Below are positions 34,052 to 64,000 of a stretch of DNA of 64,000 nucleotides, one piece after another. Every line of letters begins with the position of its first letter. Position 1 is the stretch's first letter. Where the stretch lies: contig CAZSKP010000012.1 in assembly GCA_964607485.1 (NCBI GenBank), forward strand, positions 57,142 to 121,141, given 5' to 3'. Below the pieces are notes generated by a model. The model worked only from the letters and a program-made list of their open reading frames with translations. It searched no databases and was not told where the DNA came from. The translations under genes and the position numbers were made by a program. This DNA comes from an uncultured bacterium (lineage in GTDB: Bacteria; Abyssobacteria; SURF-5).

Positions 34052-34106
34052 GAGCTCACCCCCGGAGCTTTTATAGTTTTCTCCAATATTTCCGGCCGAT
34101 GAGACG

Positions 34107-34901
34107 TCATTTATCTATCTCGCACGCTTCCGCCCAATTCGAGAGGAACTCCAAGAGCTCCTCGGGCGGCGTAATCCACAGGTCGGCTGCGGTCGAGCGG
34201 AACTCGTCGCGCACAAGAACGCCCAATCCTCTCCCCTTGATGGCGCCGAACGCATCCTCATCCGTCAAATCATCGCCCAGATAGGCGGCAGCCGTATCCC
34301 CTCCCATTTCGGCAAAGACCATATCGACCGCGAAGCCTTTGTTTCTGCCGGGAATGCGAAGCTCGACGCCTCCGTCGAACTCGTGCAGATCGAGCTCCTC
34401 GTTCCAGGCCGAGAGAGTCCATTTCTTTTGCACTTCGTTGCGAATCGTTTTGACCTCGCCCGCTTCCAATCCCCTCCAATGAACCGCGAGGCAGGCGGGC
34501 TTGTGCTCGACCCGCTCGGCCAGTCCTGCCCTTTCAATCCAGGCGTCGGCTTCGGCAAGTGCTTTCAGGGAGGTTTCCTCCAGTTTGCCAATTTCATACG
34601 TGCCGTCGGGCCTTAGCTGCTCCCAGCCGTGAGACCCCCAGATTTCGGGCAGGCGCTTGAGTCCGAGGAGCGGAATCAAATCCTTCGTCCATCGCCCGGT
34701 GATGAGTATCACGCGGGTACTTTCCGCATCCACGAGCGTCTGCAATATCTCGCGCACGCCGGGATAAGGGGTCGCTCTGTCGCGCTCTACGGTGAAGGGA
34801 GCGAGGGTTCCGTCGTAATCGAGGAGCAGCGCGCGCTTGGCGGCCTCTGAGACGCGCCGGAAAAACCTCTGCGGCTCGAATTCTGGCTTGAGAATTTTCA
34901 T
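34107..34901 (-). CDS. otsB: Trehalose-6-phosphate phosphatase (HAD)
   Basis: LDYDGTLAP, ITGR, GSHG, NKG, GDDLTDEDAF. Confidence 0.92.
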   Translation of the reverse strand: MKILKPEFEPQRFFRRVSEAAKRALLLDYDGTLAPFTVERDRATPYPGVREILQTLVDAESTRVILITGRWTKDLIPLLGLKRLPEIWGSHGWEQLRPDGTYEIGKLEETSLKALAEADAWIERAGLAERVEHKPACLAVHWRGLEAGEVKTIRNEVQKKWTLSAWNEELDLHEFDGGVELRIPGRNKGFAVDMVFAEMGGDTAAAYLGDDLTDEDAFGAIKGRGLGVLVRDEFRSTAADLWITPPEELLEFLSNWAEACEIDK

Positions 34902-35002
34902 GATTCGGCTATCCGTGTCTGTGTTGTTTGTATCGGGTGAATGTCGATTATCCGCAGGAACTTCTCTGCTTCATTCGCCCCTGCGGAGCTAAGAATAAGC
35001 GC

Positions 35003-36244: not shown

Positions 36245-36918
36245 GACACGGAATCTCCGAAGTAGCCCCTAAATACGGAAGCGAGTTGATCGCGGAGTTC
36301 GCTCAAGGTCGGGAAAAACGGGTCCACGTCGGCAAGCTGGCTGATCAGGACTTTGTATTTCTTTCCATAGCCGGAGAGCCACGCCCTGAAGTCGTCAACC
36401 TTGTCGGGAGTACGCCGGCGCGCATCGATGAAATGGTAAAAAATGCTCCCTATCGACATATGAGGAATCGCGGTGACGAAGTCTTTTGCCGCAGTGAGCT
36501 GGCGATGCGTGTCGAAAACCACCAGATGCGTGGTGATGAAGCTGAACTGCTTATCCGGCCGCGACCATGGGACCATCTCGCTCTCGTCCAGCCTCTCCTC
36601 GATTATGTCAATCAGCTTCTGGCGCAGAGCTTCCAGGTCGTCGAAATCCGTCGGGTCGACCACGCCCAAACGCTCTGCGAGCTTCTCGTCGTGGAGCCCG
36701 CGGTAGGCCCACGCGGCAAAATCGTTGTTGTATTCAGGGTCGTCAAACCGCGGCCGCAGCAGACCTCCCCAAAAATGGTGGTAGATGCTGTCAGGGTCCA
36801 CGGTCAGAAGGTGTTCTCGCAACTCCCTGAGATTATGCGCCTTTTTGCCCGTGGCTATGGCAATCAGCGCACAGTCCTTGACCGCGAACGGCTGGACTTT
36901 TGTCGCCTTGGGAGGCAT
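36241..36918 (-). CDS. DUF5752-like protein (TreT-associated), internally duplicated
   Basis: SIYHHF…NDFAAW…VDP and SIFYHF…DDFRAW…VDP repeats; ATGA coupling to treT. Confidence 0.75.
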   Translation of the reverse strand: MPPKATKVQPFAVKDCALIAIATGKKAHNLRELREHLLTVDPDSIYHHFWGGLLRPRFDDPEYNNDFAAWAYRGLHDEKLAERLGVVDPTDFDDLEALRQKLIDIIEERLDESEMVPWSRPDKQFSFITTHLVVFDTHRQLTAAKDFVTAIPHMSIGSIFYHFIDARRRTPDKVDDFRAWLSGYGKKYKVLISQLADVDPFFPTLSELRDQLASVFRGYFGDSVS

Positions 36919-49865: not shown

Positions 49866-51344
49866 ATGACAAAAATCAAGATAGACATCGACCGCAAAAT
49901 CGGCGTCATAAACTCGAATATTTACGGCGGGTTTATCGAGCATATGGGCCGGTGCATCTATGGCGGAATATACGAGGAACACTCGCCTCTGTCCTACGAA
50001 CGCGGCTTCCGCAAAGACGTGCTGGAAGCGGTTAGGGCGCTGCGTCCGGCGCATCTCCGATATCCGGGCGGCAACTTCGTCTCCGGCTACCACTGGCGGG
50101 ACGGAATCGGGCCGAAGGACCAGCGTCCGCGACGAAGAGAGCTTGCATGGCATACGGTCGAGCCGAATCGATTCGGCACCGACGAGTTCATCGAATATTG
50201 CCGCGCCGTCGGCACGGAGCCGTTCCTGTGCGTGAATCTGGGAACGGGCGCCCCCGAGGAAGCGGCGGCGTGGGTCGAGTACTGCAACGAAACCGCCGAT
50301 TCGTTCTATGCCAACCTGCGCCGAGCCAACGGTCATCCGGAGCCGTATGATGTGAAGTACTGGGGACTCGGAAACGAGATGGGAGGATTCTGGCAAATCT
50401 GCGCCAAGAACGCCGAGGATTACGCGAAGATTGCGGTCGAAGCCGCAAAGATGATGCGCTGGATCGACCCGTCCATTAAGCTGGTTGCGGTCGGCGCACT
50501 CGCCATTGCCAACCCGCTCACGTGGAACCTCACGGTCCTCGACAGGCTCGCCGGTTTCGCGGATTATATCGCGCTCCACATTTACGTCGGCAACTCCGAC
50601 TATTACAACAACGTGGCATCCCCCTTGGTTGCGCAGAAACAGATAGACCTGTTCAACGCCACCATCACGGTCGCGCTTGCCGACAAGAAGGTGCCCCCGA
50701 CCGAGATCGCGATGGACGAATGGAACGTCTGGTATCGGACGTTTGGCTCGGAGTTGGAGGAGCGGTACAATCTGGCAGACGCGCTGGTTGTCGCCGGATT
50801 CCTCAACGTGATGCACCGCAATTGCACGACCGTAACGCTCGCAAACCTTGCGCAGATGGTGAACGTGATCGCTCCGATCGTCACCAGCGAAGGGGGCATG
50901 TTCCTCCAGACGATTTATTATCCTCTGAAGCTGTACCGCGACCACTGCCTCGAAATATCTCTGGACGCGTTTGTGAATTCGCCCTCCTATCAGACGAAGA
51001 TATTCAACGAAATGGAGTCCACGGGCGAGGGCGCTCCGCTCGAAACGGTCCCCTATCTCGATGCTTCTGCGACCACCGATACGACCGGAACCCGGCTGAG
51101 CCTGGCCGTGATAAACCGGCACATGGAAGAACCCATCGAAGCCGAGGTCGGACTCGGAGGCTTTCAACCGAAAAAGAAGGCCGTCGTGTACGAGATAAAC
51201 GGGCCCGATGTGAAAGCGGAGAATTCATTTGAGAGGCCCAACAACGTGAACATTCGGGAGAAGGATTTTTCGGATGTCTCGCGTGAGTTCACGTACTCGT
51301 TTCCGGCACATTCCATCACGCTCATGAAACTCACGCAGGCTTGA
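49866..51344 (+). CDS. abfA: GH51 alpha-L-arabinofuranosidase
   Basis: FIEHMGRCIYGG, RYPGGNF, FGTDEF, LGNE (acid/base), DEWN (nucleophile), AQMVNVI. Confidence 0.92.
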   Translation: MTKIKIDIDRKIGVINSNIYGGFIEHMGRCIYGGIYEEHSPLSYERGFRKDVLEAVRALRPAHLRYPGGNFVSGYHWRDGIGPKDQRPRRRELAWHTVEPNRFGTDEFIEYCRAVGTEPFLCVNLGTGAPEEAAAWVEYCNETADSFYANLRRANGHPEPYDVKYWGLGNEMGGFWQICAKNAEDYAKIAVEAAKMMRWIDPSIKLVAVGALAIANPLTWNLTVLDRLAGFADYIALHIYVGNSDYYNNVASPLVAQKQIDLFNATITVALADKKVPPTEIAMDEWNVWYRTFGSELEERYNLADALVVAGFLNVMHRNCTTVTLANLAQMVNVIAPIVTSEGGMFLQTIYYPLKLYRDHCLEISLDAFVNSPSYQTKIFNEMESTGEGAPLETVPYLDASATTDTTGTRLSLAVINRHMEEPIEAEVGLGGFQPKKKAVVYEINGPDVKAENSFERPNNVNIREKDFSDVSREFTYSFPAHSITLMKLTQA

Positions 51345-51435
51345 TTGAGTCAGCTCCTGAGACGTGACCCGACAGGCGGCAGATTACGCGCACCAGAAAT
51401 CAGACATGGGGAGCATGGGATCCGACCTCGAACGA

Positions 51436-52257
51436 CTACAGCTCGACTTTGAAGAGGCCTTTGAGCGAGTAGCCGGCGGCTATCGAGGCGACGAAGAAAA
51501 CGACGAGCCAGTGCACGTTCCAGCCGAGCACCTTGATCGTCTGCGGTGGAAAATCGACCCGTATTTCCTCCAGTCCCGACCCTTTCGGCAGCGGGTCCTG
51601 GCCGGGGGCAAAAAGCATCGCCTCTAGGCCCGGCTGCGTCCTCGCGGTGTACACGCGCCGAACCTCGTCGGAAACAAGTATGGGCTCGTCCACGCGCTCG
51701 TCTCCGACGAGAATCGAAAGCTTGTGCTCGCCCTCCCGAACGGCGCCGATGCGGAAGTTGACCTCCTCTCCTCCCATGCGAAGAAGCGGCGTCTCCATGC
51801 GCAGCCCGTCGTCGGTCTCGACCGAGACGGGGAGTTTCTCGGCGGCTGCGGTTTCAATGAGTTTCAGCTTGACCAGCGCGGTCTCGCCGGGCCTGAGCGG
51901 CCTGGAGGCGTAGCGTATTCCCAGTTGGACCAGGATCAGAACGACGGGGACAATCATGACCAGCATCGGGACGACCGAGTATTTCATGTACGTCAGGTTG
52001 GTTCGGAGAATCCGCTTCTGCGCGTCGAGCATAAGGCCGAGGTCGTCTTTGAACAGACGCACCTCCAGGAAGTAGGCGCTGATCTTGTCCTTTGTCCTCC
52101 TGATGGCCGATTGGTTGGAGGTGTATTTGAAAATCACGACCATCACGATTCCCGTCAGGACGGAGACCGCCAGCAGCCCCCATATGGGGGAAAGGTCTCT
52201 GAACGGCAGAAAGACCAGGTCGAACGCCGCCGTGATGATTCCGTTGACAGCCTGCAT
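51436..52257 (-). CDS. Membrane protein, DUF106/EMC3-TMCO1 (Oxa1 superfamily)-like, with soluble beta-rich insertion
   Basis: Amphipathic N-helix, TM1, coiled segment, TM2 (PMLVMIVPVVLI), beta domain, terminal TM (HWLVVFFVAS…LKGLF). Confidence 0.55.
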   Translation of the reverse strand: MQAVNGIITAAFDLVFLPFRDLSPIWGLLAVSVLTGIVMVVIFKYTSNQSAIRRTKDKISAYFLEVRLFKDDLGLMLDAQKRILRTNLTYMKYSVVPMLVMIVPVVLILVQLGIRYASRPLRPGETALVKLKLIETAAAEKLPVSVETDDGLRMETPLLRMGGEEVNFRIGAVREGEHKLSILVGDERVDEPILVSDEVRRVYTARTQPGLEAMLFAPGQDPLPKGSGLEEIRVDFPPQTIKVLGWNVHWLVVFFVASIAAGYSLKGLFKVEL

Positions 52258-52278
52258 GTTTTCTCCGGAACGAAGCGC

Positions 52279-52470
52279 TCAGGAAATGTAGCCCAGCCCC
52301 TGAAGCTTCTTCTTGATTTCCTCTTCCGAGTCGGATTCCTCGAGACGCTCGATTTCGCGTTCGAGCGCGTGCGTGATGAATTCTTCGACCGAGGAATATC
52401 CGGCCAGATCGGAATAGTGCTTGACCTTCTTGAGCAGTTCCTTGTCGAGTTTTATCTTAGAGCCGAACAT
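52279..52470 (-). CDS. 63-aa protein, ribbon-helix-helix-like N-terminus and LxxLGYI tail
   Basis: GGGAGG RBS; KIKLDKELL…GYSSVEEFITHALE; ends EEEIKKKLQGLGYIS. Confidence 0.8.
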   Translation of the reverse strand: MFGSKIKLDKELLKKVKHYSDLAGYSSVEEFITHALEREIERLEESDSEEEIKKKLQGLGYIS

Positions 52471-52560
52471 TTAACCTCCCCGTACGGGTTCAGGGTTCGG
52501 GATTCGAGCTAATTCTTCTCCCTTTTCCCCTCTTGACCCTTTCGCCTTTTCCCCTTTCTA

Positions 52561-54546
52561 TTAAAACACCGGCCTGCCGGTCATGTTGGCCGGCGGCGTT
52601 ATGCCGAACTCCATCAATATCGTGGGCGTGAGGTCGCGCAGGCGCGGGTCGGCGATCTTCAGCTTGCGGTTCGCCAGAAACACGCCCGGAACCACTTCGG
52701 CGGCGATGCAGTGGTCGCCGCTCCACCTGTCGTCGTTGTCGGTGAACAGTTGTTTCGGAAACGAGCCGATGGCGGTCTCCCACGACGCGCGATACCCACG
52801 GTTGTAGCCGATGATGGCGTCGGGAACGATTCTCTCGTCGGGATTCGTGTACACCTCCCTCGTCTTGTACACGCGCAGTATCGCCTGCTCGCCCGTCTTC
52901 GGGTCTCGAACTTCGAGCAGCTTTCGGGCGATCTCGTCCAGCAGCGCATCCTTTTCCGATGGATCGACCACTCCCCTGCCCTCGCGTCCTCTTTCGTTGA
53001 TGTACAGTCCGTTGAGGCCGAGCGCGTAGGCGCGGGTGCCCGCCCAATTGACGTTCGAGTAGAACTCCCCCTCGGTGTCCTTGGTGAGGGCGATGTATCC
53101 GTTATCCTTGAGCCAGGTGCCCAGGTTGAAGGCGCGATAAAACGGAGCGAACCCGTGGTCGGACATCACGATGACCGTGGTATCGGAATCGGCCTTCGCG
53201 AGCGCCTTGCCGAGCACTTTGTCCATCTCCATATAGATGTCATACAGCACATGCCCGTACTTCTGGGCGACTTCCTTGTCATAGAGGGGATGCTTCGGAT
53301 CGATCAGCCACCACAGCATGTGCGAGTTCTGGTCGAGGCTGCAGAAGTAGAAGAAGAGGAGACCCGAATCGAAATTCTCGAGCACGTAGTCATACATCGC
53401 CAGGCGTTCGCGGAGCACGATGCCGGTCTGTCCGAGGTAGTCTTCTACGCCGAGCACGTCGGAGGAAAACGCCTTCGTGTCCTCAGGCATCCCCTGCGTG
53501 TAGAAACAGCCTACCTTCTTCGCCAGTTTGGCGGCATAATCGTCGGGCGTGGATATGGGCAGAGCCGGGTCGAGGGGGTCGATGTTTATCGGGGAGACGT
53601 ACAGGCCGAAGCTGGGCCTGACCTCTTTCAGGTAAAACCGGCATATCCCGCTCACGCTCTGAAGAAACGGAACGGCCACGAATTTCACATGCACCCAATC
53701 GCTCCATTCGCCGACGTTAAGCAGTACTTCGCTGTCCTGAACGACTATCTTCGCAACGGAATTTTCCGGGTCGACGTGGACGGTGAAGTCCACGGTCAGC
53801 TTCGGCTGCTCCTTCTTGAACGTGTTCTTGGGGCCGACGAGCTGGGCCTCGACCGTGTTGTTGCGAACGTCCACCGGATAGATTTTTCCGCCGGAGACGT
53901 CGTCCTCTTTAAATCGTTCGGGCGCGTCGGTGTAAAAGGAGAACGTTCCATACGTGCCGAGGATGTCGGGCGTGCCCATTCCGGAGAGCGAGCGCCCCTC
54001 GCATTCCACCGGCGGAAAATTCGCGGGTATCTTGATGACCGTCGTCGGCACTCCGTTTTCTTCCAGAATCTGCCAGAAGGCCTTGCCCCTGCGCAGCAGC
54101 GTTGTCTTGCCGCCGGAGAGCGGTATCACCCAGTCGCCGAGCGATATGGTGCGCTTGGGGTCCTCGGTCTTGCTGGTGGAGAGATACGGCAGGTATGTTT
54201 CGGGCTCGCGATGAATGAAATCGAAGATGCCGTGCCCGCCGGGGTCCATGCCGGTGATGAAATCCGACCACGCCACCGGACTCTGGGGCGGAATGCTCGT
54301 GCCGAGGGGTACGAAGAAGCCTTGTCGGGCGAACTCGGCGAAGTTGGGCATCTTGCCGTCGGCGATCATTCGTTTCAGAATGTTCGGGTCCATCCCGTCG
54401 ATGCCGAGCACAATCACTTTCTTCTTCGGAGGGGCCGCGTGTCCGACTCCGCATGAGACGAGCGACACGCAAAGGATGAAAAGTAAACTGAGCGCGGCGG
54501 CCGCGACCAATGTATGCTTCTTAACGCCGTTCATCGACGATGTCAC
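52561..54546 (-). CDS. Alkaline phosphatase/NPP-superfamily protein, exported (signal peptide or lipoprotein)
   Basis: Signal (…LVSC / GHA|A); GIDG, PPQSPVAW (Ser nucleophile), DQNSH, SDHG, GDH. Confidence 0.85.
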   Translation of the reverse strand: MTSSMNGVKKHTLVAAAALSLLFILCVSLVSCGVGHAAPPKKKVIVLGIDGMDPNILKRMIADGKMPNFAEFARQGFFVPLGTSIPPQSPVAWSDFITGMDPGGHGIFDFIHREPETYLPYLSTSKTEDPKRTISLGDWVIPLSGGKTTLLRRGKAFWQILEENGVPTTVIKIPANFPPVECEGRSLSGMGTPDILGTYGTFSFYTDAPERFKEDDVSGGKIYPVDVRNNTVEAQLVGPKNTFKKEQPKLTVDFTVHVDPENSVAKIVVQDSEVLLNVGEWSDWVHVKFVAVPFLQSVSGICRFYLKEVRPSFGLYVSPINIDPLDPALPISTPDDYAAKLAKKVGCFYTQGMPEDTKAFSSDVLGVEDYLGQTGIVLRERLAMYDYVLENFDSGLLFFYFCSLDQNSHMLWWLIDPKHPLYDKEVAQKYGHVLYDIYMEMDKVLGKALAKADSDTTVIVMSDHGFAPFYRAFNLGTWLKDNGYIALTKDTEGEFYSNVNWAGTRAYALGLNGLYINERGREGRGVVDPSEKDALLDEIARKLLEVRDPKTGEQAILRVYKTREVYTNPDERIVPDAIIGYNRGYRASWETAIGSFPKQLFTDNDDRWSGDHCIAAEVVPGVFLANRKLKIADPRLRDLTPTILMEFGITPPANMTGRPVF

Positions 54547-54595
54547 CCCCTAGTGGATGGTAATAATTGTAGTTGTCAGTGTGATGCAAGATTCC

Positions 54596-54623
54596 GTAGG
54601 GGCGCACGGCCGTGCGCCCCTAC
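54596..54623. repeat. GTAG-type REP palindrome, copy 2
   Basis: Identical to 44854-44881; lies between two operon genes. Confidence 0.85.
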
Positions 54624-54653
54624 AAGGACCCACAATACAAAGTCAAAAGGCTC

Positions 54654-56840
54654 CTAGCTATCCGCCTTCGCAGCGGTTTCGGATTCCTCGAGAAGCGATG
54701 TGCCGTCCATGTGTGCGGGGATTGGAATTCCGAAAACATCCAGCACGGTAGGCGCGACATCCGTCATGTGCACGTTTTCGCCGCGCATTTTCCGGTTGGA
54801 GAAGAACACTCCGGGAACAAGCGAGGGGTCTATGCAGTGGTCCCCGCTCCAGCTCTTGGTGTTGTCGTCAAAGACGACCTCGCTGACCATCCCGGTCACG
54901 GAATCCCATGAGGCCCGATAGCCGGCATTGTAGCCCACAATGATGTCGGGCGCGTTCTCTTTGTAAGGACCCGAATATATGCGCGCGCTGTCGTACAGCT
55001 TGGTGATTCCAACCTCGCCGGTTTCTTCGTCCCTCAGACCGGAAAGCTTCTGGATAAGCTCCTTCTTCAACGCATCGGCCTGTTCGCCCGGCTCGACGGT
55101 TCCCTTTGCCTCGCGTCCCTTTACGTTCAGAAAAATGCCGCCCAGCCCAATTGCAAAGGCCTTTGTCTTTGTCCAGTCAACTCCCTTGAACCACTGACCG
55201 GCGGCCTCGCCGTCTTTCAGGTGGAGATATCCATTCAGGTAGAGCCAGGAGTTGAGGTTGACGCCCCGACGGAACGAGTTGAATCCGTGGTCCGACATAA
55301 TCACGAGCACGTCGTTCTCACGCATCTTTTCGAGCACCCGGCCCACGAGGCCGTCCATCTTCATGTAGAGGTTTACGATGGCTTCCTTGAAGTTTTCGGT
55401 GTCCTTGTCGCGGTTGGCCGGATGACGCTCGTCGAGGTAGCGCCAGAAGAGGTGTTGAATCCTGTCGGTGATGTCGAAGACGCACACGCACAGGCCGCGC
55501 CGCGTCTTATCCAGCGCGTTGAAGAACATCTTCTCGCGTTCCTCGTGGATGAGGTAACACTGCTCTTCGAATTCCTTTTCGCCGATGATGCGCTCGTTGA
55601 TGGCCCACGTGTCCTCGGCGAGCCCCAGCGTCGCATATCGGCCGAGCAGTTTCGAGAGATAAATCGAGTAGATGAACGGGTGCGAGATCGGCAGCGCCGG
55701 CTTGGACGGGTCGATGTTTATCGGCGTCACATACAGCTCGAAATGCGGCTCGGTCTCCTTGAGCAGGAAGCGGCAGACGCCATACACCTTGATGCCGGGA
55801 GCGGCCTTGAACCCGAGCCGGACCCAATCGGAATATTCCCCCTTCCGGAGGTTAATCGCCTGACCGTCGATTCTGAGCTTGGCTGCCTCCGAATCGGCCC
55901 CGAGCGTGACCTCGAACGGAATCCTCATCTCCGAGGACTTCTTGAGAAACGTGTTTTCCGGACCGCCGATGAAAGAGCGCACCGTGTTGCCGTTTCGCTC
56001 CACCCGAATCTCCGTGCCGCCGGTGTATCCGCCTTCGCCCCGCTCGTGGGTCGTGTAATGGGTGAACGACCCCTGCGTGCCCTTGAGGTCGGGAACGCAC
56101 ATGGCGGAAAGCATCACGCCCCTGAACTTCTCGGGCGGAAACGTGATGGGAACCCTGAGCACGGTGGAAAAAATTCCGTGCTCGCCCAAGATGCTCCAGA
56201 AGGGCTTGCTCTTGCGCAGGAGTCTTATTTCCGGCTTGCCCAACGGAATCGCATATTTGCCCAGCGACAATGTCCTGCGCGCCTTCCCGATGTGCGCGGA
56301 GGAGAGGTCGGGCAGGTACGTCCTCTTGTCGCGCGTGAGAAAGTCGTAAATATTGTGGCGGCCGGGATTGACGCCCGTCATGAACGAAGACCAGGCCACG
56401 GGCGAAATGGGAGGACAGGTGGTGTTGAGCCTCGCATACGTGCCCGTCTCTTTGAGCCTGGCGAAGTTGGGCAGCTTTCCCTCGGAGATGAGTCTGTCCA
56501 CCATGTTGGGGTCGAGGCCGTCCAGTCCGACGATGAACATCCGGTCGGCGCTGCTGCGGCCATACGCCTTTTTCTTCCGCAGCCCCCTGAACAGGTATCG
56601 CACCGGCCATGTCAGCATCAGGAAGAACGCGAAGAACACGGCGAGGAAGACCACGAAGAACGACGTGAGAAACGCAAAGCCGGCGCCCGGGCCGATGTAG
56701 GCGTGTGCGTCGCGGGGAAATGCGACCAGCCACGCTGCGGCCAGCACAAGCGCGGCCGCCGCCCGCGCGGCCCTTTGCCGCGTTCCAGCCTCGACGGGCC
56801 TCTCAGCTTTCCATGTATTGAAGAATGATTTCGGCGACAT
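54654..56840 (-). CDS. Alkaline phosphatase/NPP-superfamily protein with N-terminal AHA-YIGPG + TM anchor
   Basis: AHAYIGPGAG, TM, RKKK; GLDG, PPISPVAW, DRIQH, SDHG, GDH; start set at ATG 56840 (uncertain). Confidence 0.85.
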   Translation of the reverse strand: MSPKSFFNTWKAERPVEAGTRQRAARAAAALVLAAAWLVAFPRDAHAYIGPGAGFAFLTSFFVVFLAVFFAFFLMLTWPVRYLFRGLRKKKAYGRSSADRMFIVGLDGLDPNMVDRLISEGKLPNFARLKETGTYARLNTTCPPISPVAWSSFMTGVNPGRHNIYDFLTRDKRTYLPDLSSAHIGKARRTLSLGKYAIPLGKPEIRLLRKSKPFWSILGEHGIFSTVLRVPITFPPEKFRGVMLSAMCVPDLKGTQGSFTHYTTHERGEGGYTGGTEIRVERNGNTVRSFIGGPENTFLKKSSEMRIPFEVTLGADSEAAKLRIDGQAINLRKGEYSDWVRLGFKAAPGIKVYGVCRFLLKETEPHFELYVTPINIDPSKPALPISHPFIYSIYLSKLLGRYATLGLAEDTWAINERIIGEKEFEEQCYLIHEEREKMFFNALDKTRRGLCVCVFDITDRIQHLFWRYLDERHPANRDKDTENFKEAIVNLYMKMDGLVGRVLEKMRENDVLVIMSDHGFNSFRRGVNLNSWLYLNGYLHLKDGEAAGQWFKGVDWTKTKAFAIGLGGIFLNVKGREAKGTVEPGEQADALKKELIQKLSGLRDEETGEVGITKLYDSARIYSGPYKENAPDIIVGYNAGYRASWDSVTGMVSEVVFDDNTKSWSGDHCIDPSLVPGVFFSNRKMRGENVHMTDVAPTVLDVFGIPIPAHMDGTSLLEESETAAKADS

Positions 56841-58119
56841 CGGTGATGTTAAGGTCTTCCTTCGGTTGTTGCGCCGACCACAGGAACGCGTCGTCCCACG
56901 TATGCATACCCGTGAGCGCGCTTCGTCCGAAAAGCTCCTTCCGCTTCGGCGAGCCCTTGATGTCGAACCCGTATTTCGAGACAGCCACGAGGTTCGGCCC
57001 GCGCTCGGCGAAGGGGCCGTCGTATGCCTCGTCCCTCTCAAAAACTCTGTCTATTACGCGCTCACCGTCGCAGGTGAGCTCGGCCAGCCCGGCCGCGATG
57101 TCGGCGGTGATGGGCTTCACGTCCTCCGGTTTCACGCAGCCCTTGGGAAATTTCCCGACGAGGTTGAGGTATATGCGCGACGGGTCGAGCGCGAACGCGC
57201 GCGTGCCCTCGCCTATCGCCTCGATAGTGTCGGCTTCGTCCGATTCGAGCGTCAGGAACCCCTCCTGCTTGAGCCATGCGCTGAGATAAAACTCGTTCTT
57301 CACCCCGACGAAGCCGTGGTCGGAGAGGATGAAGAAACCGGGCGTGGGCTCCTCGGCGTCCACAAGCCGCTTGAATCGTGAATGAATCCGCCCGATGAAG
57401 GAATCGACTGTGCGGTAGTAGTTCAAGAACGCATCGTGACACGGATGCGTCGTGTCGTCGAGCGCGTCCCACAGGTAGTGGTGAAGCCTGTCGGTCCCCG
57501 TGACGACGACCTCGAAGTAATCCCATGCCTCGTTATCCCAGAGGAAGTTGACGGCGCGCTCGCGGGCTTCGAGGGTCCTGGCGAGTTCGGTTATCAGGTA
57601 CGAGTGGTCGTCGCGCGCGCGGAGCGTGTCGATGTCGATGATGTAGCCGCCCTGTTCCAGTTTCGGAAGAAGCGAGGGCGGATGAACCGCCTTGCGCAGG
57701 CTGAGCGCGACGAATCCGGAGATAAGAGCGCCCTCTATCGGACGGGCGGGATAGGTTGAGGGCTGATTGACGACGACGCTCCTCTTTTTCCTCTCCGCGA
57801 GCCTGTCCCAGATGGTGGGAGCGCGAAGGTCCTTGAACGACGGGAATCGCAGGCTGTAGGATTCGGGCTTGAGGTCGGTGAACCCGAAGATCGAATGCCC
57901 TCCCGGATTCTTTCCCGTCATGAAGCTCGGCCAACTGACGGCAGAGATTTCCGGCAAGGTGACCCGCATCTTGCTCAGATGGCCGGCGCGGACGATTTCG
58001 GCCAGTTCCGGCATGGTGCCGTCTTCGGTGAAGCGTTTCAAGAGCGTATGGGGAACTCCGTCGAGTCCGACCACACACGCTCGCTTTTTTTTCTTACTCC
58101 AAAATGGCGCCACAAGCAA
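56803..58119 (-). CDS. Alkaline phosphatase/NPP-superfamily protein, cytoplasmic
   Basis: GLDG, PEISAVSW, DRLHH, SDHG, GMH; no signal peptide. Confidence 0.85.
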   Translation of the reverse strand: MLVAPFWSKKKKRACVVGLDGVPHTLLKRFTEDGTMPELAEIVRAGHLSKMRVTLPEISAVSWPSFMTGKNPGGHSIFGFTDLKPESYSLRFPSFKDLRAPTIWDRLAERKKRSVVVNQPSTYPARPIEGALISGFVALSLRKAVHPPSLLPKLEQGGYIIDIDTLRARDDHSYLITELARTLEARERAVNFLWDNEAWDYFEVVVTGTDRLHHYLWDALDDTTHPCHDAFLNYYRTVDSFIGRIHSRFKRLVDAEEPTPGFFILSDHGFVGVKNEFYLSAWLKQEGFLTLESDEADTIEAIGEGTRAFALDPSRIYLNLVGKFPKGCVKPEDVKPITADIAAGLAELTCDGERVIDRVFERDEAYDGPFAERGPNLVAVSKYGFDIKGSPKRKELFGRSALTGMHTWDDAFLWSAQQPKEDLNITDVAEIILQYMES

Positions 58120-58128
58120 TTCGACCGC

Positions 58129-58731
58129 TTAGATATAACCAAGAGAACGCAGTCGTTCCTTAATTTTTTCCTCTTCTTCCTCGGTGTATTCCTCTTCGGT
58201 CCCTGACGGGGGAATGTGATTCATGAGCTCGAGCGTCCTAAGAATCTTGTTCACGCTCTCCTCGACGGATTCCTTATCGGTCTCGACGACTATCTCCGCG
58301 TTCTCCGGTTCTTCATACGGGTCGTCCACGCCGGTGAAATTCTTGATCTCGCCCCGCTCGGCCTTCTCGTAAAGGCCCTTCGGGTCGCGCTCCTTCAGAA
58401 CCTTAAGCGGGCACTTGCAGAACACCTCGACGTATGAGCCGATGAGTTTGCGGTTTTCCGCACGTATGTTGCTGTAGGGCGAGATTGCGGCGGCGATGGC
58501 GACGACATCGTTGCGGGTCAGCAGGTGGCACACGAAGCCGATGCGCCTGATGTTGATGTCGCGGTCTTCCTTCGAGAATCCCAGCCCTTTGCTCAAGTTT
58601 GTGCGAATCACGTCGCCGTCGAGCACTTCCACCTTCAGGCCTCGTTCGAGCAGTACCCCCTTCAGTTCGCGAGAAAGCGTCGTCTTGCCGGAGCCCGATA
58701 GACCCGTGAACCAGAGCGTGAAACCTTTCAT
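58129..58731 (-). CDS. cysC: Adenylyl-sulfate (APS) kinase with acidic LxxLGYI C-terminal extension
   Basis: WFTGLSGSGKTT, LDGD..R, LGFS, ISPY, RDPKGLY, FTGVDDPYE; tail EEEYTEEEEEKIKERLRSLGYI. Confidence 0.95.
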   Translation of the reverse strand: MKGFTLWFTGLSGSGKTTLSRELKGVLLERGLKVEVLDGDVIRTNLSKGLGFSKEDRDINIRRIGFVCHLLTRNDVVAIAAAISPYSNIRAENRKLIGSYVEVFCKCPLKVLKERDPKGLYEKAERGEIKNFTGVDDPYEEPENAEIVVETDKESVEESVNKILRTLELMNHIPPSGTEEEYTEEEEEKIKERLRSLGYI

Positions 58732-58750
58732 CGGTTAGTGCCTCCTTTGA

Positions 58751-60127
58751 CTAGATGATGGATTTGCCGATCATGTTGTCAGGAATGTCAATGTCGAAAT
58801 ATTTCAGCACCGATGGGGCGATATCGTATATGGAATAGGTTTTCGGGCCGCCGGGCTTTTCCCCGGGGATGTGCCAGATGAAGATGCCCTCCTCGGCATG
58901 GTTGGCGTCGTCGGGGCCGGTATCGTTCTCGTACATGTACACCGAACCCACGCCGACCGATCCGGCCGAGCGCCAGTCGAGGTTGCCCAGGTACACGATG
59001 AGGTCGGGCGGGATGTTGTTCGTGACCCGGTACACCTCCTCGGGCTTGAAGACCTTGGTGTTGATGCACCTTCCGTTTTCGTCCTCGATGGCTTCAAGGC
59101 GCGCCTTGAGTTCGTCGCGGGCGGTCTCGTACTGTTCTTTGGGTATGACTCCATCGGGCTCGCGGCCCTGAACGTTCATGAAGATGCGGCTGTAGTATCC
59201 CCCCTCACCCCATACCTTTGTCTTGCTCCAATCGACCATGTCAACCTTGAATCTCTTTCGCTCGCTCGGGCGTTCCTTGAGCGTAAGGTAGCCCTCGCGC
59301 TGAAGCCACTCGTTTATGCATATCGCTCCGACCATCGTCTTTGCGCCGTGGTCGGAGACGACCATGACCGACGTGTCGGACGGCAGCGCGTCGAGCGTCC
59401 TCCCAATCTCGGCGTCGAGGCTCACGTAGTAATCGTGTATCACGTTCTCGTACTTGTTGCCGGGCTCATACAGCCGGTGGTTCTTGTCGGAGTAGCGCCA
59501 GAACCCGTGGTGTATGCGGTCGATGCCCATCTCGACCATGATTGCGAAGTCGTACGAATCCTTCTGAAGGAAGTGTCGAAACGCCTTGAAGCGGCGCTCG
59601 GTCATCACGTAGATGGCGCTCAGAAGCTCGTCCTTGCGGTCGGTTCGGAAGTTCTCGACGTCTATGATGTAATTGCCGTCGGCGACCTGGTCGAGCTCGG
59701 CCTTGACCTCGTCGGGATACGTGAACGAGACGTCCTTGCCGGGAGTGAGGAAGCTGGCAACGAGCATGCCGTTGAGCGGCTTGGGCGGATATGTCTGCGG
59801 CACGCCGAAGACCAGTGAACGCATCCGGTTGCGGGAGAGATGGTTCCACAGCGTCTTCGCCTTGACATACTTGGCGTTGGCGAAATACAGGTCTTCGTAG
59901 CCGTAGCTGCGGCGGTTGCGGAAGCCGTAGAAGCCGAGCATGCCCGGGTCGTGCGAGGTCATCATCGACGTCCACGCGGGCACGGTGATGGGCGGCAGGG
60001 TCGATTTGAGCGGCCCATGAAGCCCGTCGCCGACCAGACGCTTTATGTTCGGCAGGTCGCTTATCCACTTGTCGAAAACGAGGCTCGGCTCGGCGCAGTC
60101 GAGCCCCAGTATCACCAATTTTCCCAA
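58751..60127 (-). CDS. Alkaline phosphatase/NPP-superfamily protein, cytoplasmic
   Basis: GLDC, PPITVPAW (Thr nucleophile), DRIHH, SDHG, ANH; AGGAG + TTG start. Confidence 0.88.
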   Translation of the reverse strand: MGKLVILGLDCAEPSLVFDKWISDLPNIKRLVGDGLHGPLKSTLPPITVPAWTSMMTSHDPGMLGFYGFRNRRSYGYEDLYFANAKYVKAKTLWNHLSRNRMRSLVFGVPQTYPPKPLNGMLVASFLTPGKDVSFTYPDEVKAELDQVADGNYIIDVENFRTDRKDELLSAIYVMTERRFKAFRHFLQKDSYDFAIMVEMGIDRIHHGFWRYSDKNHRLYEPGNKYENVIHDYYVSLDAEIGRTLDALPSDTSVMVVSDHGAKTMVGAICINEWLQREGYLTLKERPSERKRFKVDMVDWSKTKVWGEGGYYSRIFMNVQGREPDGVIPKEQYETARDELKARLEAIEDENGRCINTKVFKPEEVYRVTNNIPPDLIVYLGNLDWRSAGSVGVGSVYMYENDTGPDDANHAEEGIFIWHIPGEKPGGPKTYSIYDIAPSVLKYFDIDIPDNMIGKSII

Positions 60128-60138
60128 AGAATCGGCTC

Positions 60139-61293
60139 CTATTCTCCGTTGCGGAAAGCCTTGAGCAGGATTTCGGCCACCTCAGGCCTTGTGAACTCCG
60201 GCGGCGGCGTCTGGCCGCGTCGGAGCATTTCGCGCACCTTCGTTCCGCTGAAGACGATGTGGTCGCGCGAGCTGTGCGGACACGTTTTCATCGAGGCCAT
60301 ACTGTCGCATGTATTGCAATAGAACGCGTTATCGAAAAACAGCGGGGTGATCCCGATTTCGTCCGGCTCGAATTCGCGGAAGATATGGTGCGCGTCGTAA
60401 GCCCCGTAATACGAGCCGACGCCCGCATGGTCCCTGCCCACGATGAAGTGGGTGCATCCGTAGTTCTTCCTGATGATGGCGTGGAATATCGCTTCCCTGG
60501 GGCCGGCATAACGCATCGCGGCCGGGAAGACGGACAGCGCGACCCGCGTTCTCGGATAATATTTTTCCAGCAACGCCTCGTAACATTTCATCCGCACTTC
60601 CGGCGAAATATCATCATCCTTGGTCGCTCCGACGAGCGGATGAATGAGGATGGCATCGACGATTTCGAGCGCGCATTTTTGGAGATATTCGTGGGCGCGA
60701 TGAATCGGATTACGCGTCTGGAAGGCCGCTACCTGACGCCAGCCCTTCGCCTTGAAGAGCACGCGCATTTCCTTCGGGTCGAGCCTGTAGTTGTTCAGGA
60801 CTTTGTGTTTCGGACGGTTGATGAGACTCACCTTCCCGCCCAGGTACACGTCGCCGAGGCTCTGAAGGTACTGGTTGCCCGGGTGCGCGACGTCGGCTGT
60901 TCGCAGAACGGTCAGCGCCTCGTGCTGCTTGTCAACCTCGAACTTGTCCTCGAGATGGAGAACGCCCAGGAGACCGTCGCTTTCGTCCAGCAGGGCGACC
61001 TCGCCGCCGACCTCGTACTCATCTCCCCTCCCCTGCTTGATGGAAAGGGTGACGGGGATGGTCCAGGGCAACCCCTTCGACAGCCTCATGAGGTCGAGGA
61101 CGCTGACGTAGTCCTCTCTCGTCATGAAGCCCTCGAGCGGGCTCATGGCGCCGGTGGCGATCATCTCGAGGTCGCAAACTTCCCGGGCGTTGAGCACGAC
61201 GGCGGGCATGTGCGACGCTCGTTTTTCCAGAGCCTCGCGCTCCTGTCCCTCCGCGGTTCGATTCACGAGTTGTCCGCCGTGCGGCTTAATCAT
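60139..61293 (-). CDS. sat: Sulfate adenylyltransferase (homo-oligomeric Sat type)
   Basis: PHGG, SPLEGFM, AFQTRNPIHRAHE, MRYAGPREA, GRDHAG, SGTKVR. Confidence 0.95.
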   Translation of the reverse strand: MIKPHGGQLVNRTAEGQEREALEKRASHMPAVVLNAREVCDLEMIATGAMSPLEGFMTREDYVSVLDLMRLSKGLPWTIPVTLSIKQGRGDEYEVGGEVALLDESDGLLGVLHLEDKFEVDKQHEALTVLRTADVAHPGNQYLQSLGDVYLGGKVSLINRPKHKVLNNYRLDPKEMRVLFKAKGWRQVAAFQTRNPIHRAHEYLQKCALEIVDAILIHPLVGATKDDDISPEVRMKCYEALLEKYYPRTRVALSVFPAAMRYAGPREAIFHAIIRKNYGCTHFIVGRDHAGVGSYYGAYDAHHIFREFEPDEIGITPLFFDNAFYCNTCDSMASMKTCPHSSRDHIVFSGTKVREMLRRGQTPPPEFTRPEVAEILLKAFRNGE

Positions 61294-61356
61294 ATAGAAA
61301 GACCGTGTTCGCAAACAGAGTTATCGTATCTTCTTCCTAACTCAAGATAACATATT

Positions 61357-61386
61357 ATTTTACTTGCATTAGGCTTGCCGTGTCAA
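61357..61386 (-). promoter_or_regulatory. Sigma70-type promoter for the sat operon
   Basis: TTGACA, 18-nt spacer, TAAAAT. Confidence 0.7.
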
Positions 61387-61544
61387 GCTTGCTTCGAGTG
61401 ACAAGCGGGCGGAGGTGAAAGGCATGAATCCGCAGCGGAAAACGCATTGGAGGGTCGAGTCGATTGCAGGTCGCTGGGTGTGCCTGAAGCACGGCCTCGA
61501 CGGGCGGCCTTGCGCTGCCCTGAAAGACTCGTGTTGCCGAATCG

Positions 61545-62747
61545 TCATCCGAAAAAGAGCGACCTCCTTTTTTTCAGTGCCGAATCCACCATCTCCTGTA
61601 TTGTATTCCGAAGCTGTCTGTTGAGCCGATTGATTATGACATTGTCCTTGAGGGCAGAGTCGTCGTACTTGTCGTACCTGATTATCTCTCCGAATTGAAT
61701 GTACCATTTCGTGGGCATCGGAATGACCCCGAGCGGCCCGAGCCATGGAAACGTGGGCGTGATCGGAAGCAGCGGCAGCCCCACTATCTTGCCCAGCCAG
61801 TTTGCGTAGCCGAGCACGATGTAAATCTCTTCAGCGCCCACGACCGCGCACGGAACCACGGGGGAGCGTGTCCTGATGGCGAGTCGAACGACGCCGCCTC
61901 GGCCGAAGCGGGCGACATTGTAACGATTCTTGAAGCCCTTCGCCATCCCCTTTATGCCTTCGGGAAAAACGCCGACGAGTTGTTCCTGGTTCAGCAGCCT
62001 CTGGGCATTTTCCTGGCATGCCCTGACCTGGCCGACCGCATTCATGAATTCCGTCGCGAACGGAAGCTGGCCGAACCAGTCCTCGATCAGAAAGCGGGCA
62101 TAGCGCCGGGCGGGATGAAACTTCCATATGGCGGTGGCCATCATGGCGCCGTCGAAGGGCAAAACACCGGAATGGTTGGAGACGATGAGAGTGCGTCCCT
62201 CGTTTGGAATGTTTTCGAGCCCCGTGGTGTCCACCCTCCAATATTTTTCGTACAGGAACGTCATGAACGACTCGAACTTGGTCTCGATATCGGGGACTTT
62301 GCCGAATTCGTCCATACGCTCCAACGTATCAATCAGTTCTTCATAATCTCCCGGCCCGGCGCCCGACAGAAACGACAGCACTCGTCCTATAATGCCTCTT
62401 TGTCGGCCTCTGGTTTTCCGAGACTTGGAGGCCGCCGAGCGCCTAATCTTCTTGACCGACACTCCGAGGTCGTCATCGCTCGAGCTGTCTTTCGATTCCT
62501 GGCTTTCCGAAACCTTGGCGGACCGCCTTTTCCTGGTCGATTTCCTCCGCTCGTCAAGCCTGCTTTCGAGCTTTGCAAGCCTTTCCTCGACCCGCTTCTC
62601 GATCTGCTCCGTCATATCGTCTGTGCCCGTCGCGGCACGTGACGATGTGGCGGCCGAGTTGTTCTTGCCGGGCCTTCGAGCTTTCCGGCCCTCGCCGTCG
62701 GATGAATTTCCGTTGGACTTAGTTTGTTTCTCGATTTCTGTTGTCAT
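61545..62747 (-). CDS. PlsC-like lysophospholipid acyltransferase with low-complexity N-terminal extension
   Basis: NHSGVLPFD (HX4D), FPEG, PCAVVGAEE. Confidence 0.88.
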   Translation of the reverse strand: MTTEIEKQTKSNGNSSDGEGRKARRPGKNNSAATSSRAATGTDDMTEQIEKRVEERLAKLESRLDERRKSTRKRRSAKVSESQESKDSSSDDDLGVSVKKIRRSAASKSRKTRGRQRGIIGRVLSFLSGAGPGDYEELIDTLERMDEFGKVPDIETKFESFMTFLYEKYWRVDTTGLENIPNEGRTLIVSNHSGVLPFDGAMMATAIWKFHPARRYARFLIEDWFGQLPFATEFMNAVGQVRACQENAQRLLNQEQLVGVFPEGIKGMAKGFKNRYNVARFGRGGVVRLAIRTRSPVVPCAVVGAEEIYIVLGYANWLGKIVGLPLLPITPTFPWLGPLGVIPMPTKWYIQFGEIIRYDKYDDSALKDNVIINRLNRQLRNTIQEMVDSALKKRRSLFFG

Positions 62748-62788
62748 GAAGGACCTCGTCTCAATTTTCCCCTCGTGGCAGCCGCCGA

Positions 62789-63877
62789 CTACTCCGCAGT
62801 GGAAACGCCCGCCATCTCCTCTGCCATCTCTTCGTTGGGCTCTTCCCCTTCCACCGGACGACCCACGCGGCCGAGGCGCTTGACCTCAAGGAATTCCTCG
62901 AGGGCCTCCCACGCGGCCTTCTTTGCCTCGAACCCCATTACCTCTCTTGCTCTCGCGCCGTCGGCCAGGCAGTGATATTTCAGAAAGTCGAGATGTTCGG
63001 GCGGAAACGGCCCCAGCTTGGCGATCCACAGGGCTCTGAAAAGGTTCTCGGCCACAGGGGTCGGCAACGGAAGCCGGGTCTTGTTGGCGAGCCTGAATAT
63101 CATGCTCAGGGGAATCACCCGTTTGCCCACGATGTTGAACACGCCGGGAAAATCTTCGTCCACGGCCAGCTTGAAGGCGTCTATCACATCCTGCTCGGAG
63201 ATGAACTGTACCAGTGGATTGTATGCGAGAACCGCCGGGCAAACAGGCATCGAGAGATAATGCGTCCAGCAGTTTTCCACCGTCGGCCCCATGATGGAAC
63301 AGTGTCTCAGCACCGTGACGAGGGTTTCGGGATTGTCCTTCCAGAAACGCAGCAATTGTCGCTCGACCTCGACCTTGTCCAACTGAAATTCGTAATCCAT
63401 CCGCGGCCGCGGCTGGTGATTCTCGGTCATATAATGAGGATTATCGAAATGAGCGCCGTATACCAACGTGCGGCTGCCCACCACTATCTTGCGCACGGGC
63501 GATTCAGAGCACGCGGACAGCGTGTGCATGGTCCCGATCGAATTCACTTCGTGCGCATACGTCGTGTCCTCGATGGGCCTTTGATAGAATCCGGTGTGCA
63601 CAACGATGTCGGGTTTTTCTTCGTTCAGTATTTCAAGCATCATTTCGTCGGCGCGGGGATGGGTGAGGTCCACTTTGTAGAATTTCGTTTTCAGGAGCTT
63701 GTAGGGCGGCCTCTCAAGGTCCACCGCAACCAGTCGCTCATAGCGTGCATCCGCTTTCAACCGTTTGAGCAAATTGCTGCCCACGAACCCCGCTGCCCCG
63801 GTCAGCAGAACGCGCCGGCCTCCCGAGGTTTCTCCGGATTCGTTTTTGCGTGATGACTTTTTTGCCCCCTTACCCAT
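62789..63877 (-). CDS. NAD-dependent epimerase/dehydratase (extended SDR)
   Basis: LTGAAGFVG, VNSIGT, VYGA, QFISEQD. Confidence 0.85.
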   Translation of the reverse strand: MGKGAKKSSRKNESGETSGGRRVLLTGAAGFVGSNLLKRLKADARYERLVAVDLERPPYKLLKTKFYKVDLTHPRADEMMLEILNEEKPDIVVHTGFYQRPIEDTTYAHEVNSIGTMHTLSACSESPVRKIVVGSRTLVYGAHFDNPHYMTENHQPRPRMDYEFQLDKVEVERQLLRFWKDNPETLVTVLRHCSIMGPTVENCWTHYLSMPVCPAVLAYNPLVQFISEQDVIDAFKLAVDEDFPGVFNIVGKRVIPLSMIFRLANKTRLPLPTPVAENLFRALWIAKLGPFPPEHLDFLKYHCLADGARAREVMGFEAKKAAWEALEEFLEVKRLGRVGRPVEGEEPNEEMAEEMAGVSTAE

Positions 63878-64000
63878 TTTCCGCTCCGCTCTTTGCCGCT
63901 TTTGTATTCGGTTTATGTGTCAATTACTTTGCCATTTTTGTGAACCGATGTCAAGAGGGACCGTCTCTTGGGGGGTATGGCAGTGCGGATGGTATCTCTA

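Follow-up and report, generated by a model that had tools for sequence, protein, structure and literature searches.

A sulfate-activation operon associated with four alkaline phosphatase-superfamily proteins and a shared C-terminal tail in an uncultured bacterium

Described systems and layout of the operon

The closest described counterpart of the operon studied here is the archaeal 'sulfate assimilation' cluster of Pyrococcus yayanosii, in which copG, an ATP sulfurylase gene, the gene of a DHH-family phosphatase of 3'-phosphoadenosine 5'-phosphate (pApase), a type I phosphodiesterase/NPP gene (PYCH_17550) and an adenosine 5'-phosphosulfate (APS) kinase gene are found together (PMC8268124). 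The published account of that cluster only speculates on the role of the NPP gene, which is suggested to degrade pyrophosphate (PPi), and does not appear to mention the tail motif described below. The present operon lies in a 64,000-nt stretch of DNA, hereafter the window, which corresponds to C12:57142-121141 of the 4.70-Mb assembly, in 93 contigs, of an uncultured bacterium. It is a dedicated sulfate-activation operon that carries a second ATP sulfurylase (Sat) and the genome's only APS kinase (CysC), tied to enzymes of the alkaline phosphatase (AP) superfamily. G000 denotes the source genome, other G numbers related genomes, L numbers fetched loci and C numbers contigs of G000. The eight minus-strand genes occupy window positions 51436-61314, as follows.

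61357..61386, minus strand: sigma-70-like promoter hexamers 5' of sat, TTGACA-18-TAAAAT (11/12, consensus match only)
60139..61314, minus strand: sat, sulfate adenylyltransferase (PF01747, 340.7 bits, plus PUA_2; NF003166, 554.8 bits)
58751..60127, minus strand: AP1, cytoplasmic enzyme of NPP fold, nucleophile Thr48, predicted to receive the LGY tail (PF01663, 145.2 bits)
58129..58731, minus strand: cysC, APS kinase with a C-terminal tail at residues ~179-200 (PF01583, 205.2 bits)
56803..58119, minus strand: AP2, cytoplasmic AP-superfamily paralogue with a Ser nucleophile (PF01663, 126.4 bits)
54654..57041, minus strand: AP3, probably membrane-anchored AP-superfamily paralogue, given as the ORF maximum (PF01663, 102.2 bits, two stretches)
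52561..54546, minus strand: AP4, putatively exported AP-superfamily paralogue with a lipoprotein signal (PF01663, 118.7 bits, two stretches)
52279..52470, minus strand: s63, small CopG/ribbon-helix-helix (RHH)-like protein of 63 aa with the tail (RHH_1, 16.1 bits, sub-threshold)
51436..52257, minus strand: mem273, membrane protein with an Ig-like middle domain and three hydrophobic regions

This order is the one given in the initial annotation, and it is matched by the open reading frames (ORFs) and their Pfam/NCBIfam assignments (48 window ORFs were scanned, namely the 8 operon genes and 40 others). Neighbouring genes are separated by 9-107 nt or overlap, with 11 nt between sat and AP1 and 19 nt between AP1 and cysC. 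The single promoter placed before the operon has a counterpart in the hexamers 5' of sat, but this is a match to the consensus only, and eight such sigma-70-like sites occur in the region, compared with 3.4 +/- 1.8 in shuffled sequence. An Rfam scan of positions 51000-64000 found no RNA family.

As in the P. yayanosii cluster, sat and cysC have an NPP-family gene between or beside them (AP1 adjoins both), the set includes a small gene (here s63, a putative CopG-like one), and neither a reductase nor a sulfotransferase is present within the cluster as published. The window operon differs from the published one in that it adds AP2-4 and a membrane protein, has its CopG-like gene at the far end and encodes a tailed CysC. 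In addition, and unlike the cluster as described, none of the eight operon genes matched a DHH-family pApase in the Pfam/NCBIfam scan. The P. yayanosii paper (PMC8268124) was the only link of an NPP gene with sat and cysC found in our literature search, which left out subscription journals and supplementary files.

That an AP-superfamily enzyme can act as a sulfuryl transferase, as the initial annotation supposed, has experimental precedent. Deletion and heterologous expression identified two Halobacterium salinarum proteins, Agl30 (VNG1056C, a membrane protein) and Agl31 (VNG1057C, a soluble one), as N-glycan sulfotransferases (PMC11980604). According to the published description, they are encoded in a glycosylation cluster, are nearest to the sulfatases of PDB entries 5G2U and 6HHM, and have no stated sulfate donor. 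AP1-4 resemble them in belonging to the AP superfamily and in comprising membrane-linked and soluble members, theirs acting to sulfate a glycan; unlike Agl30 and Agl31, which are described as sulfatase-like, AP1-4 are NPP-like PF01663 proteins. The AP1 model matched 5G2T (BT1596, the same protein as 5G2U) with a Z score of 22.3 and 6HHM with 23.7, both below the NPPs.

AP1-AP4 were compared in one four-protein alignment, and AP1 conservation was assessed in an alignment of 45 orthologues, archaeal ones among them (AP1 residue numbering is used throughout). The metal ligands D10, D203, H207, D259, H260 and H410 are kept in all four paralogues and are invariant in the 45 orthologues. The nucleophile is Thr48 in AP1 (PPITVPAW) and Ser in AP2, AP3 and AP4 (PEISAVSW, PPISPVAW and PPQSPVAW, respectively), and the formylglycine sulfatase motif (CxPxR, or C/S-x-P-x-R) is found in none of the four in the alignment. 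The full bimetal motif set with a Thr or Ser nucleophile, noted earlier, was thus borne out. All four exceed the PF01663 cut-off of 23 bits, and PF00884 gave 18.6 bits against AP1, under its cut-off of 25 bits.

The AlphaFold2 (AF2) model of AP1 (pLDDT 94.7) has the fold of NPPs, including the Xanthomonas enzyme Xac NPP (Z 30.2), ENPP4 (30.0), ENPP7 (29.7), ENPP6 (29.5) and ENPP1, with a root mean square deviation of 3.0-3.2 over 336-346 residues. Weaker matches were PhnA (Z 25.7), sulfatases (21-24) and LtaS/LtaP (18-19). Features common to AP1 and the NPPs are a Thr as nucleophile, all six metal ligands and, 23 residues past the nucleophile, an Asn. AP1 differs from them in its identity of only 12-16%, its cytoplasmic location, its sulfate-activation gene context, and the additional invariant elements R70, D156, R161, R204, G309-Y311 and ENDTGPDDANH, which form the predicted groove for the tail; altogether, 52 columns are invariant across the 45 orthologues. 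By sequence, AP1 has no close solved relative (best E 5.6e-4 against PDB sequences), AP2 and AP4 have no match among PDB sequences, and the ESM Atlas returned only generic "alkaline phosphatase family" clusters. LtaS, EptA and OpgB are PF00884 transferases of the same superfamily that use lipid donors, a Ser/Thr nucleophile and a covalent intermediate and act on envelope-polymer acceptors; to our knowledge, they have no link to PAPS (3'-phosphoadenosine 5'-phosphosulfate). Their multi-transmembrane (TM) layout is seen in several tailed paralogues of G000. The genome holds about two dozen AP-superfamily genes, with 27 PF01663 matches and 18 PF00884 loci in overlapping sets.

The four proteins appear to be distributed over both sides of the membrane. 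AP1 and AP2 contain no hydrophobic or TM segment and are soluble. The 795-aa AP3 ORF has hydrophobic segments at 90-109 and 114-151 and is over-extended at its 5' end, as its orthologues start aligning at about residue 98-114; the true start is probably downstream of the ORF maximum. In 8 of 9 orthologues compared (loci L009-L015, L063 and L070), a hydrophobic stretch ending in AxA is followed by Y[IV]GPGAGFA, a TM segment, an Arg/Lys-rich stretch and GLDG. This N-terminus resembles a cleaved signal leaving an N-out, C-in anchor, and judging from this signature AP3 is probably anchored with its catalytic domain inside, in the cytoplasm. The N-terminal hydrophobic segment of AP4 ends in the lipobox LVSC, and its orthologues have either a lipobox or, in two of them, the Tat motif RREFLK, from which we infer that AP4 is exported as a lipoprotein or through Tat. 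AP3 and AP4 are 41% identical and have in common an insert of about 200 aa.

Conservation of the AP1 locus and sulfur metabolism of the genome

AP1 orthologues with identities of 44-100% were found in 13 of the 41 related genomes searched; these bearers are largely kin, nine of them coming from one family. The full gene order also occurs in family relatives (L010, L011 and L006), with all eight genes in L010, and L011 ending at the contig start after s63. The order is kept in G004 and G007, and sat is missing from that place in G005. The set is split into AP1-cysC and AP2-AP3-AP4-s63-mem273 in G028; G012 has sat-AP1-cysC-AP2, G023 and G034 have AP1-cysC, and G027 has AP3-mem273-AP4.

A scan of GTDB species genomes returned at least 591 relatives of AP1. 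The neighbourhood counts given here use the best-scoring 80 loci, which are rich in Thermoplasmata and Poribacteria, and their fractions are not population estimates. By record title, these loci belong to Eisenbacteria, Latescibacterota, Krumholzibacteriia, Armatimonadetes, Acidobacteriota, Chloroflexota, Ignavibacterium, Nitrospinae, Poribacteria, Thermoplasmata, Nitrososphaerota and others. AP1 is accompanied by cysC in 32 loci, by sat in 25, by both in 22 and by neither in 45. AP2 follows cysC in 17 loci that have AP1, and AP3 and AP4 are present as well in 11. The archaeal loci L043 and L056 show the same order, sat-AP1-cysC, and L024, from the cultured Ignavibacterium album, has sat-AP1-cysC-AP2. 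The conserved synteny of sat and cysC with AP paralogues therefore recurs in several bacterial phyla, and its core is also archaeal.

Loci in which cysC is not adjacent have other contents. Those of Poribacteria contain a cytoplasmic sulfatase with CVPAR together with GNAT, PhyH and DegT genes, those of Nitrospinae and of a Syntrophobacteraceae metagenome-assembled genome contain Thr-type sulfatase-like genes, and others contain glycosyltransferases, Wzz, Wzy-TPR or a flippase. Nevertheless, cysC was present elsewhere in all five genomes checked with an unlinked AP1, and it was found in 13/13 AP1-bearing relatives versus 10/28 relatives without AP1, so that AP1 and cysC co-occur in 18 of 18 genomes checked. 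G006, of the same family and 91% complete, has neither an AP1 orthologue nor cysC but retains two PF13469 matches; this joint absence may be a shared loss or an assembly gap.

AP1 also occurs fused to Sat, in at least 120 proteins. The 120 longer homologues listed (268 at E <= 1e-30) all join PUA_2, ATP-sulfurylase and PF01663 domains within 826-912 aa. Fusions of ATP sulfurylase with an inorganic pyrophosphatase (in stramenopiles and haptophytes) or with APS reductase (in Heterocapsa) have been described (PMC2275785). The present fusions resemble the former in that Sat is joined to a partner, which in the published case removes a product of the Sat reaction, and differ in that the partner has the NPP fold and is neither a family I pyrophosphatase nor a reductase as in that description.

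Outside the operon, G000 contains a second sat on C70 (L095:1-6968), truncated by the contig end, in a dissimilatory-type set that also comprises aprB (211.5 bits), aprA (913 bits), a pair of ORFs without assignment and two HdrA-like (Qmo-like) genes. With a Sat and an APS reductase thus also encoded outside the operon, the window Sat is a dedicated second copy; cysC is single-copy. A PAPS_reduct protein (CysH) is encoded on C16 next to an Rrf2 regulator and has the motifs CC...CxxC and ECGIH. The former we take to be the mark of APS reductases, in which case cysC would not be needed for assimilation. The sole P-loop sulfotransferase of G000 (PF13469, 121.7 bits) is encoded on C29 (L093:8929-9732, minus strand) among fliC, flaG, fliD, fliS and two large TPR-GT2 proteins, one of 1525 aa, and this position next to flagellin genes suggests a sulfated flagellin glycan. 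In the initial annotation, the window had been described as lacking both a sulfotransferase and CysH. This holds for the window, among whose 48 scanned ORFs neither a P-loop sulfotransferase (PF00685/PF13469) nor CysH was found, but not for the genome, in which cysH, aprAB and a sulfotransferase are all present. G012 and G023 have separate cysC copies beside P-loop sulfotransferases, so that the AP1-linked cysC is a separate copy in these genomes.

The shared C-terminal tail and its predicted seat on AP1

CysC ends in EEEYTEEEEEKIKERLRSLGYI, a tail of the pattern Y[ST]xEEEExIKxRLxxLGY[IL], and s63 ends in the same tail, EEEIKKKLQGLGYIS. The consensus of 73 such tails is [YFL][ST]xEEEEx[IV]Kx[RK]LxxLGY[IL]. 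Among complete orthologues, 29 of 38 CysC proteins and all 14 s63 proteins retain the tail; the CysC copies without it are mainly archaeal. In the Nitrososphaerota locus L043, it is absent from CysC and present on a small RHH-like ORF just upstream of sat. The last core helix of CysC (residues ~160-175, KILRTLELMNHIP; LGYIP in many orthologues) resembles the tail helix, and the tail may therefore stem from a duplication of that helix.

The tail extends beyond these two proteins. A regular-expression search of all G000 frames of at least 40 aa returned 15 frames; besides CysC and s63, these are 13 frames, each of which falls on a PF01663 or PF00884 match. AP1-AP4 of the window are without the tail. 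Several of the tailed paralogues have a multi-TM layout, and some tailed proteins look extracytoplasmic. Among 10,803 frames of the 80 loci, 60 carry the tail: 22 cysC, 22 s63-like, 9 AP-like (among them the AP1 orthologues of L019 and L038) and 7 without a BLAST match to window proteins. Of the last seven, three are sulfatase-like proteins of Nitrospinae with genes adjoining AP1, and the others are four small ORFs (81-117 aa; L020, L030, L041 and L070); a fourth tailed Nitrospinae sulfatase-like protein has AP3 as its best match. No tail ORF was found in the Thermoplasmata or Poribacteria loci among the 80; a tail profile detected a 98-aa frame in one Thermoplasmata genome (E 3.6e-8).

Latescibacterota-like full clusters have an extra small tailed ORF (77-101 aa, LKQKLRNLGYLD) just upstream of sat, like the archaeal copG, at these positions.

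L013:92-379, extra tailed ORF upstream of sat
L063:6504-6806, extra tailed ORF upstream of sat
L070:6386-6634, extra tailed ORF upstream of sat
L071:6571-6804, extra tailed ORF upstream of sat
L073:7698-7961, extra tailed ORF upstream of sat
L074:6567-6800, extra tailed ORF upstream of sat
L075:7701-7958, extra tailed ORF upstream of sat

The window has no extra tailed ORF at this place, only the promoter-like site. Its s63, which lies downstream of AP4, scores 16.1 bits against RHH_1 (cut-off 20.5 bits), and the small ORF of L043 scores 19.6 bits.

A complex of AP1 (45-row alignment) with CysC residues 170-200 (29 rows) was predicted together with three controls. The complex scored 0.69 and the best control 0.01, the runs share at least 81% of contacts, and the partner pLDDT is at least 61. 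The score mark is reached by 116 of 157 solved complexes and by 2 of 215 mismatched pairs, rates that are only rough here since custom alignments were used. In the model, CysC Y199 contacts I47, T48, F69 and Y311 of AP1, CysC L197 contacts D156, F160, R204 and H207, and the acidic part of the tail contacts AP1 residues 81-87 and 129-133. The named contact residues are mostly invariant or near-invariant in the 45 orthologues, including the archaeal ones, so that the model would give a role to AP1-specific conserved positions. The prediction lends support to a putative binding of the tail by AP1. Solved structures include no comparable complex, the best PDB sequence match having E 5.6e-4.

Possible functions and neighbouring gene clusters

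We suggest, at somewhat less than even confidence, that AP1 transfers or removes a group derived from APS or PAPS, probably sulfuryl, on the tail Tyr and thereby links the making of PAPS to AP-fold enzymes located on either side of the membrane. AP1 would recognise the tail on CysC, on s63 and on at least 13 other AP-superfamily proteins of G000, and the last Tyr of the tail would be seated at the metal site of Thr48 and His207, in the position expected of the leaving or accepting oxygen in AP/NPP substrates. Given this modelled position and Sat and CysC as constant companions, the simplest chemistry would be a ping-pong sulfuryl transfer via a covalent Thr48 intermediate, by which the group from APS or PAPS would be put onto the Tyr, or its removal from there. 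The tails would then couple PAPS synthesis to membrane AP-fold enzymes, AP3 on the inner and AP4 on the outer side, whose substrate would be a glycan or lipid of the envelope.

A relay by the AP paralogues from the cytoplasm to the envelope had been put forward in the initial annotation. The synteny, the Sat fusions, the placement of the proteins on both membrane sides and the predicted tail docking speak for it, and the modelled seat of the tail Tyr at the AP1 nucleophile, as a prediction, would fit such a group transfer. The presence of a sulfotransferase in the genome and of the core cluster in print takes away part of its basis. What is already known is the sat-NPP-cysC-copG core as a gene cluster, as described for P. 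yayanosii (PMC8268124), and AP-superfamily sulfotransferases, as reported for H. salinarum (PMC11980604). Within the scope of our literature search, no printed account was found of AP2-4, s63 and mem273 as a bacterial extension of the core, of a tail that marks CysC, RHH proteins and AP-superfamily enzymes family-wide, or of the seat predicted for this tail on the AP1 nucleophile.

Several observations weigh against the proposed action on the tail Tyr. The fusion partner of AP1 is Sat and not CysC. NPP enzymes normally attack phosphorus rather than sulfur. A canonical sulfotransferase of family PF13469 is matched in 12 of the 13 AP1-bearing genomes, a co-occurrence that the initial annotation had named as speaking against its proposal, and such a P-loop enzyme could consume the PAPS, although G012 and G023 have other cysC copies beside theirs. 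At least one tail ORF is present in 37 of the 80 loci, but none is found near AP1 in the other 43; the tail profile gave only a weak match (E 0.1) in one Poribacteria genome, and the AP1 orthologues of L019 and L038 are themselves tailed. Tailed proteins that look extracytoplasmic would be out of reach of a cytoplasmic AP1 once exported. Finally, the docking is a model confidence obtained from custom alignments, and peptides are readily placed in active-site clefts.

The main rival is that AP1 serves the supply of PAPS as a housekeeping enzyme, hydrolysing the PPi of Sat and so pulling an unfavourable reaction, while AP2 removes pAp or PAPS, in the manner of the archaeal cluster's DHH pApase, and ordinary P-loop sulfotransferases elsewhere use the PAPS. 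The Sat-AP1 fusions fit such a helper as well, with the ATP sulfurylase-pyrophosphatase fusions as known precedent (PMC2275785, as described there) and the speculation on PPi degradation by the archaeal NPP gene (PMC8268124, in the published account) pointing the same way. So do the many invariant Arg of AP1, the PF13469 enzymes of the AP1-bearing genomes, that of G000 adjoining flagellin genes, and the distribution of the soluble pyrophosphatase PF00719, which is present in 9 of 28 genomes without AP1 but had no match in G000 and none in the 13 AP1-bearing genomes; this distribution also tells against the action on the tail. However, PF00719 is likewise missing from the other 19 of these 28 genomes, and the AP1-bearing genomes are largely kin. 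Furthermore, G000 encodes a membrane H+-PPase, and its dissimilatory sat is without AP1; sat is not near AP1 in 55 of the 80 loci, some of which adjoin Thr-type sulfatase-like genes, glycosyltransferases, Wzz or a flippase. A PPi helper would also leave AP3, AP4, s63, mem273 and the shared tail unexplained, as well as the predicted docking of the tail at Thr48. We regard this explanation as rather unlikely. For AP1 as a pAp phosphatase, the case is less likely, because the archaeal cluster as published has a DHH pApase alongside its NPP gene (PMC8268124).

The tail could instead be a docking handle only, in which case AP1-4 and the tailed paralogues would themselves sulfate glycans or lipids in the manner of Agl30/Agl31, the CysC tail tethering the source of PAPS to them while its Tyr stays unmodified. 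The precedent of the membrane and soluble halobacterial enzymes (PMC11980604, in the published description), the predicted binding of the tail to AP1, a large exopolysaccharide (EPS) cluster at window 900-30000 and a second polysaccharide cluster with three tailed PF01663 paralogues agree with this. It is nonetheless unlikely in our view: a Tyr placed as modelled, on the nucleophile and a metal ligand, would block the active site that the handle should feed, the tail is also carried by an RHH-like protein and by exported-looking proteins, and Agl30 and Agl31 are sulfatase-like, not PF01663, with a donor left undefined and the term "PAPS" occurring 0 times in the text of the report. Further conceivable roles are that the tail might be an amphipathic helix that targets the membrane, a ligand for a TPR carboxylate clamp, a BY-kinase site or a peptide that docks on Sat. 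That the paralogues are generic phosphodiesterases or phosphatases for phosphorus scavenging which stand beside sat and cysC by chance would agree with the PF01663 annotation and the two dozen or so AP-superfamily genes of G000. The synteny, conserved among bacterial phyla and in archaea, and the AP1-Sat fusions make this difficult to sustain, as do the cytoplasmic location of AP1 and AP2 and the joint absence of AP1 and cysC from G006, and we give it very little credence.

An extension of the proposed action of AP1 on the tail Tyr, which we consider quite improbable as a whole, is that the LGY tail is a protein-borne sulfuryl carrier, whose Tyr AP1 would turn into an aryl sulfate using APS or PAPS. 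The arm of the tail, flexible and acidic, may hand the group to AP-fold enzymes, including exported or periplasm-facing ones, where no PAPS exists; envelope glycans may be the target, and the tailed s63 might report the charge state to transcription. In a variant belonging to the same improbable reading, AP3, mem273 and AP4 would form a Gtr-like trio, in which AP3 would make a lipid-linked sulfate donor, mem273 would flip it and AP4 would use it outside.

Envelope-glycan sulfation in most bacteria and archaea is poorly known, and COG3379-type NPP proteins are without an assigned role, although the module is widespread, with at least 591 matches among GTDB species genomes and Sat fusions in the hundreds. 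With a tail common to several proteins and predicted to sit on the AP1 nucleophile, a loose link to PAPS becomes a simple bench question. If the Tyr is modified, AP1 would be a new kind of protein tyrosine modification enzyme with a new logic for the delivery of activated sulfate; if AP1 is merely a pyrophosphatase, a published speculation would be settled and a recurrent false lead removed.

The last gene of the operon, mem273, is syntenic in 9 of the 80 AP1 loci. In its AF2 model (pLDDT 86.9), four helices at the N-terminus precede a beta sandwich at 120-248, and a TM segment lies at the C-terminus. A Foldseek search against the PDB gave only Ig-like matches to the middle domain (E above 2e-3). 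An assignment of mem273 as an insertase was dropped, as the EMC3/TMCO1 Pfam match of 18.3 bits is below the cut-off of 27.1 bits.

The EPS cluster of the window extends over 911-29901 and contains genes for a BBP2 porin, Wza, Wzc, two Wzy-like proteins, three B12-binding radical SAM proteins, seven GT4 glycosyltransferases, a flippase, an Acetyltransf_6 GNAT protein, DegT, YdjC and a Bac_transf priming transferase. The second polysaccharide cluster, of the Wzx/Wzy/Wzc/GT/radical-SAM kind, is on C4 (L094:117-15353), and the three PF01663 paralogues inside it are cytoplasmic-looking and each LGY-tailed. Trehalose genes (GT20 OtsA-like, trehalose phosphatase and TreT-like) and a DUF5752 gene are found at window 32549-36918 on the minus strand. 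Upstream of sat, at 61545-63877 on the minus strand, are genes for a PlsC-type acyltransferase of 400 aa, whose N-terminus is long and basic, and for an NAD-dependent epimerase/dehydratase; family relatives show the two genes in synteny, and C7 carries a paralogous pair.

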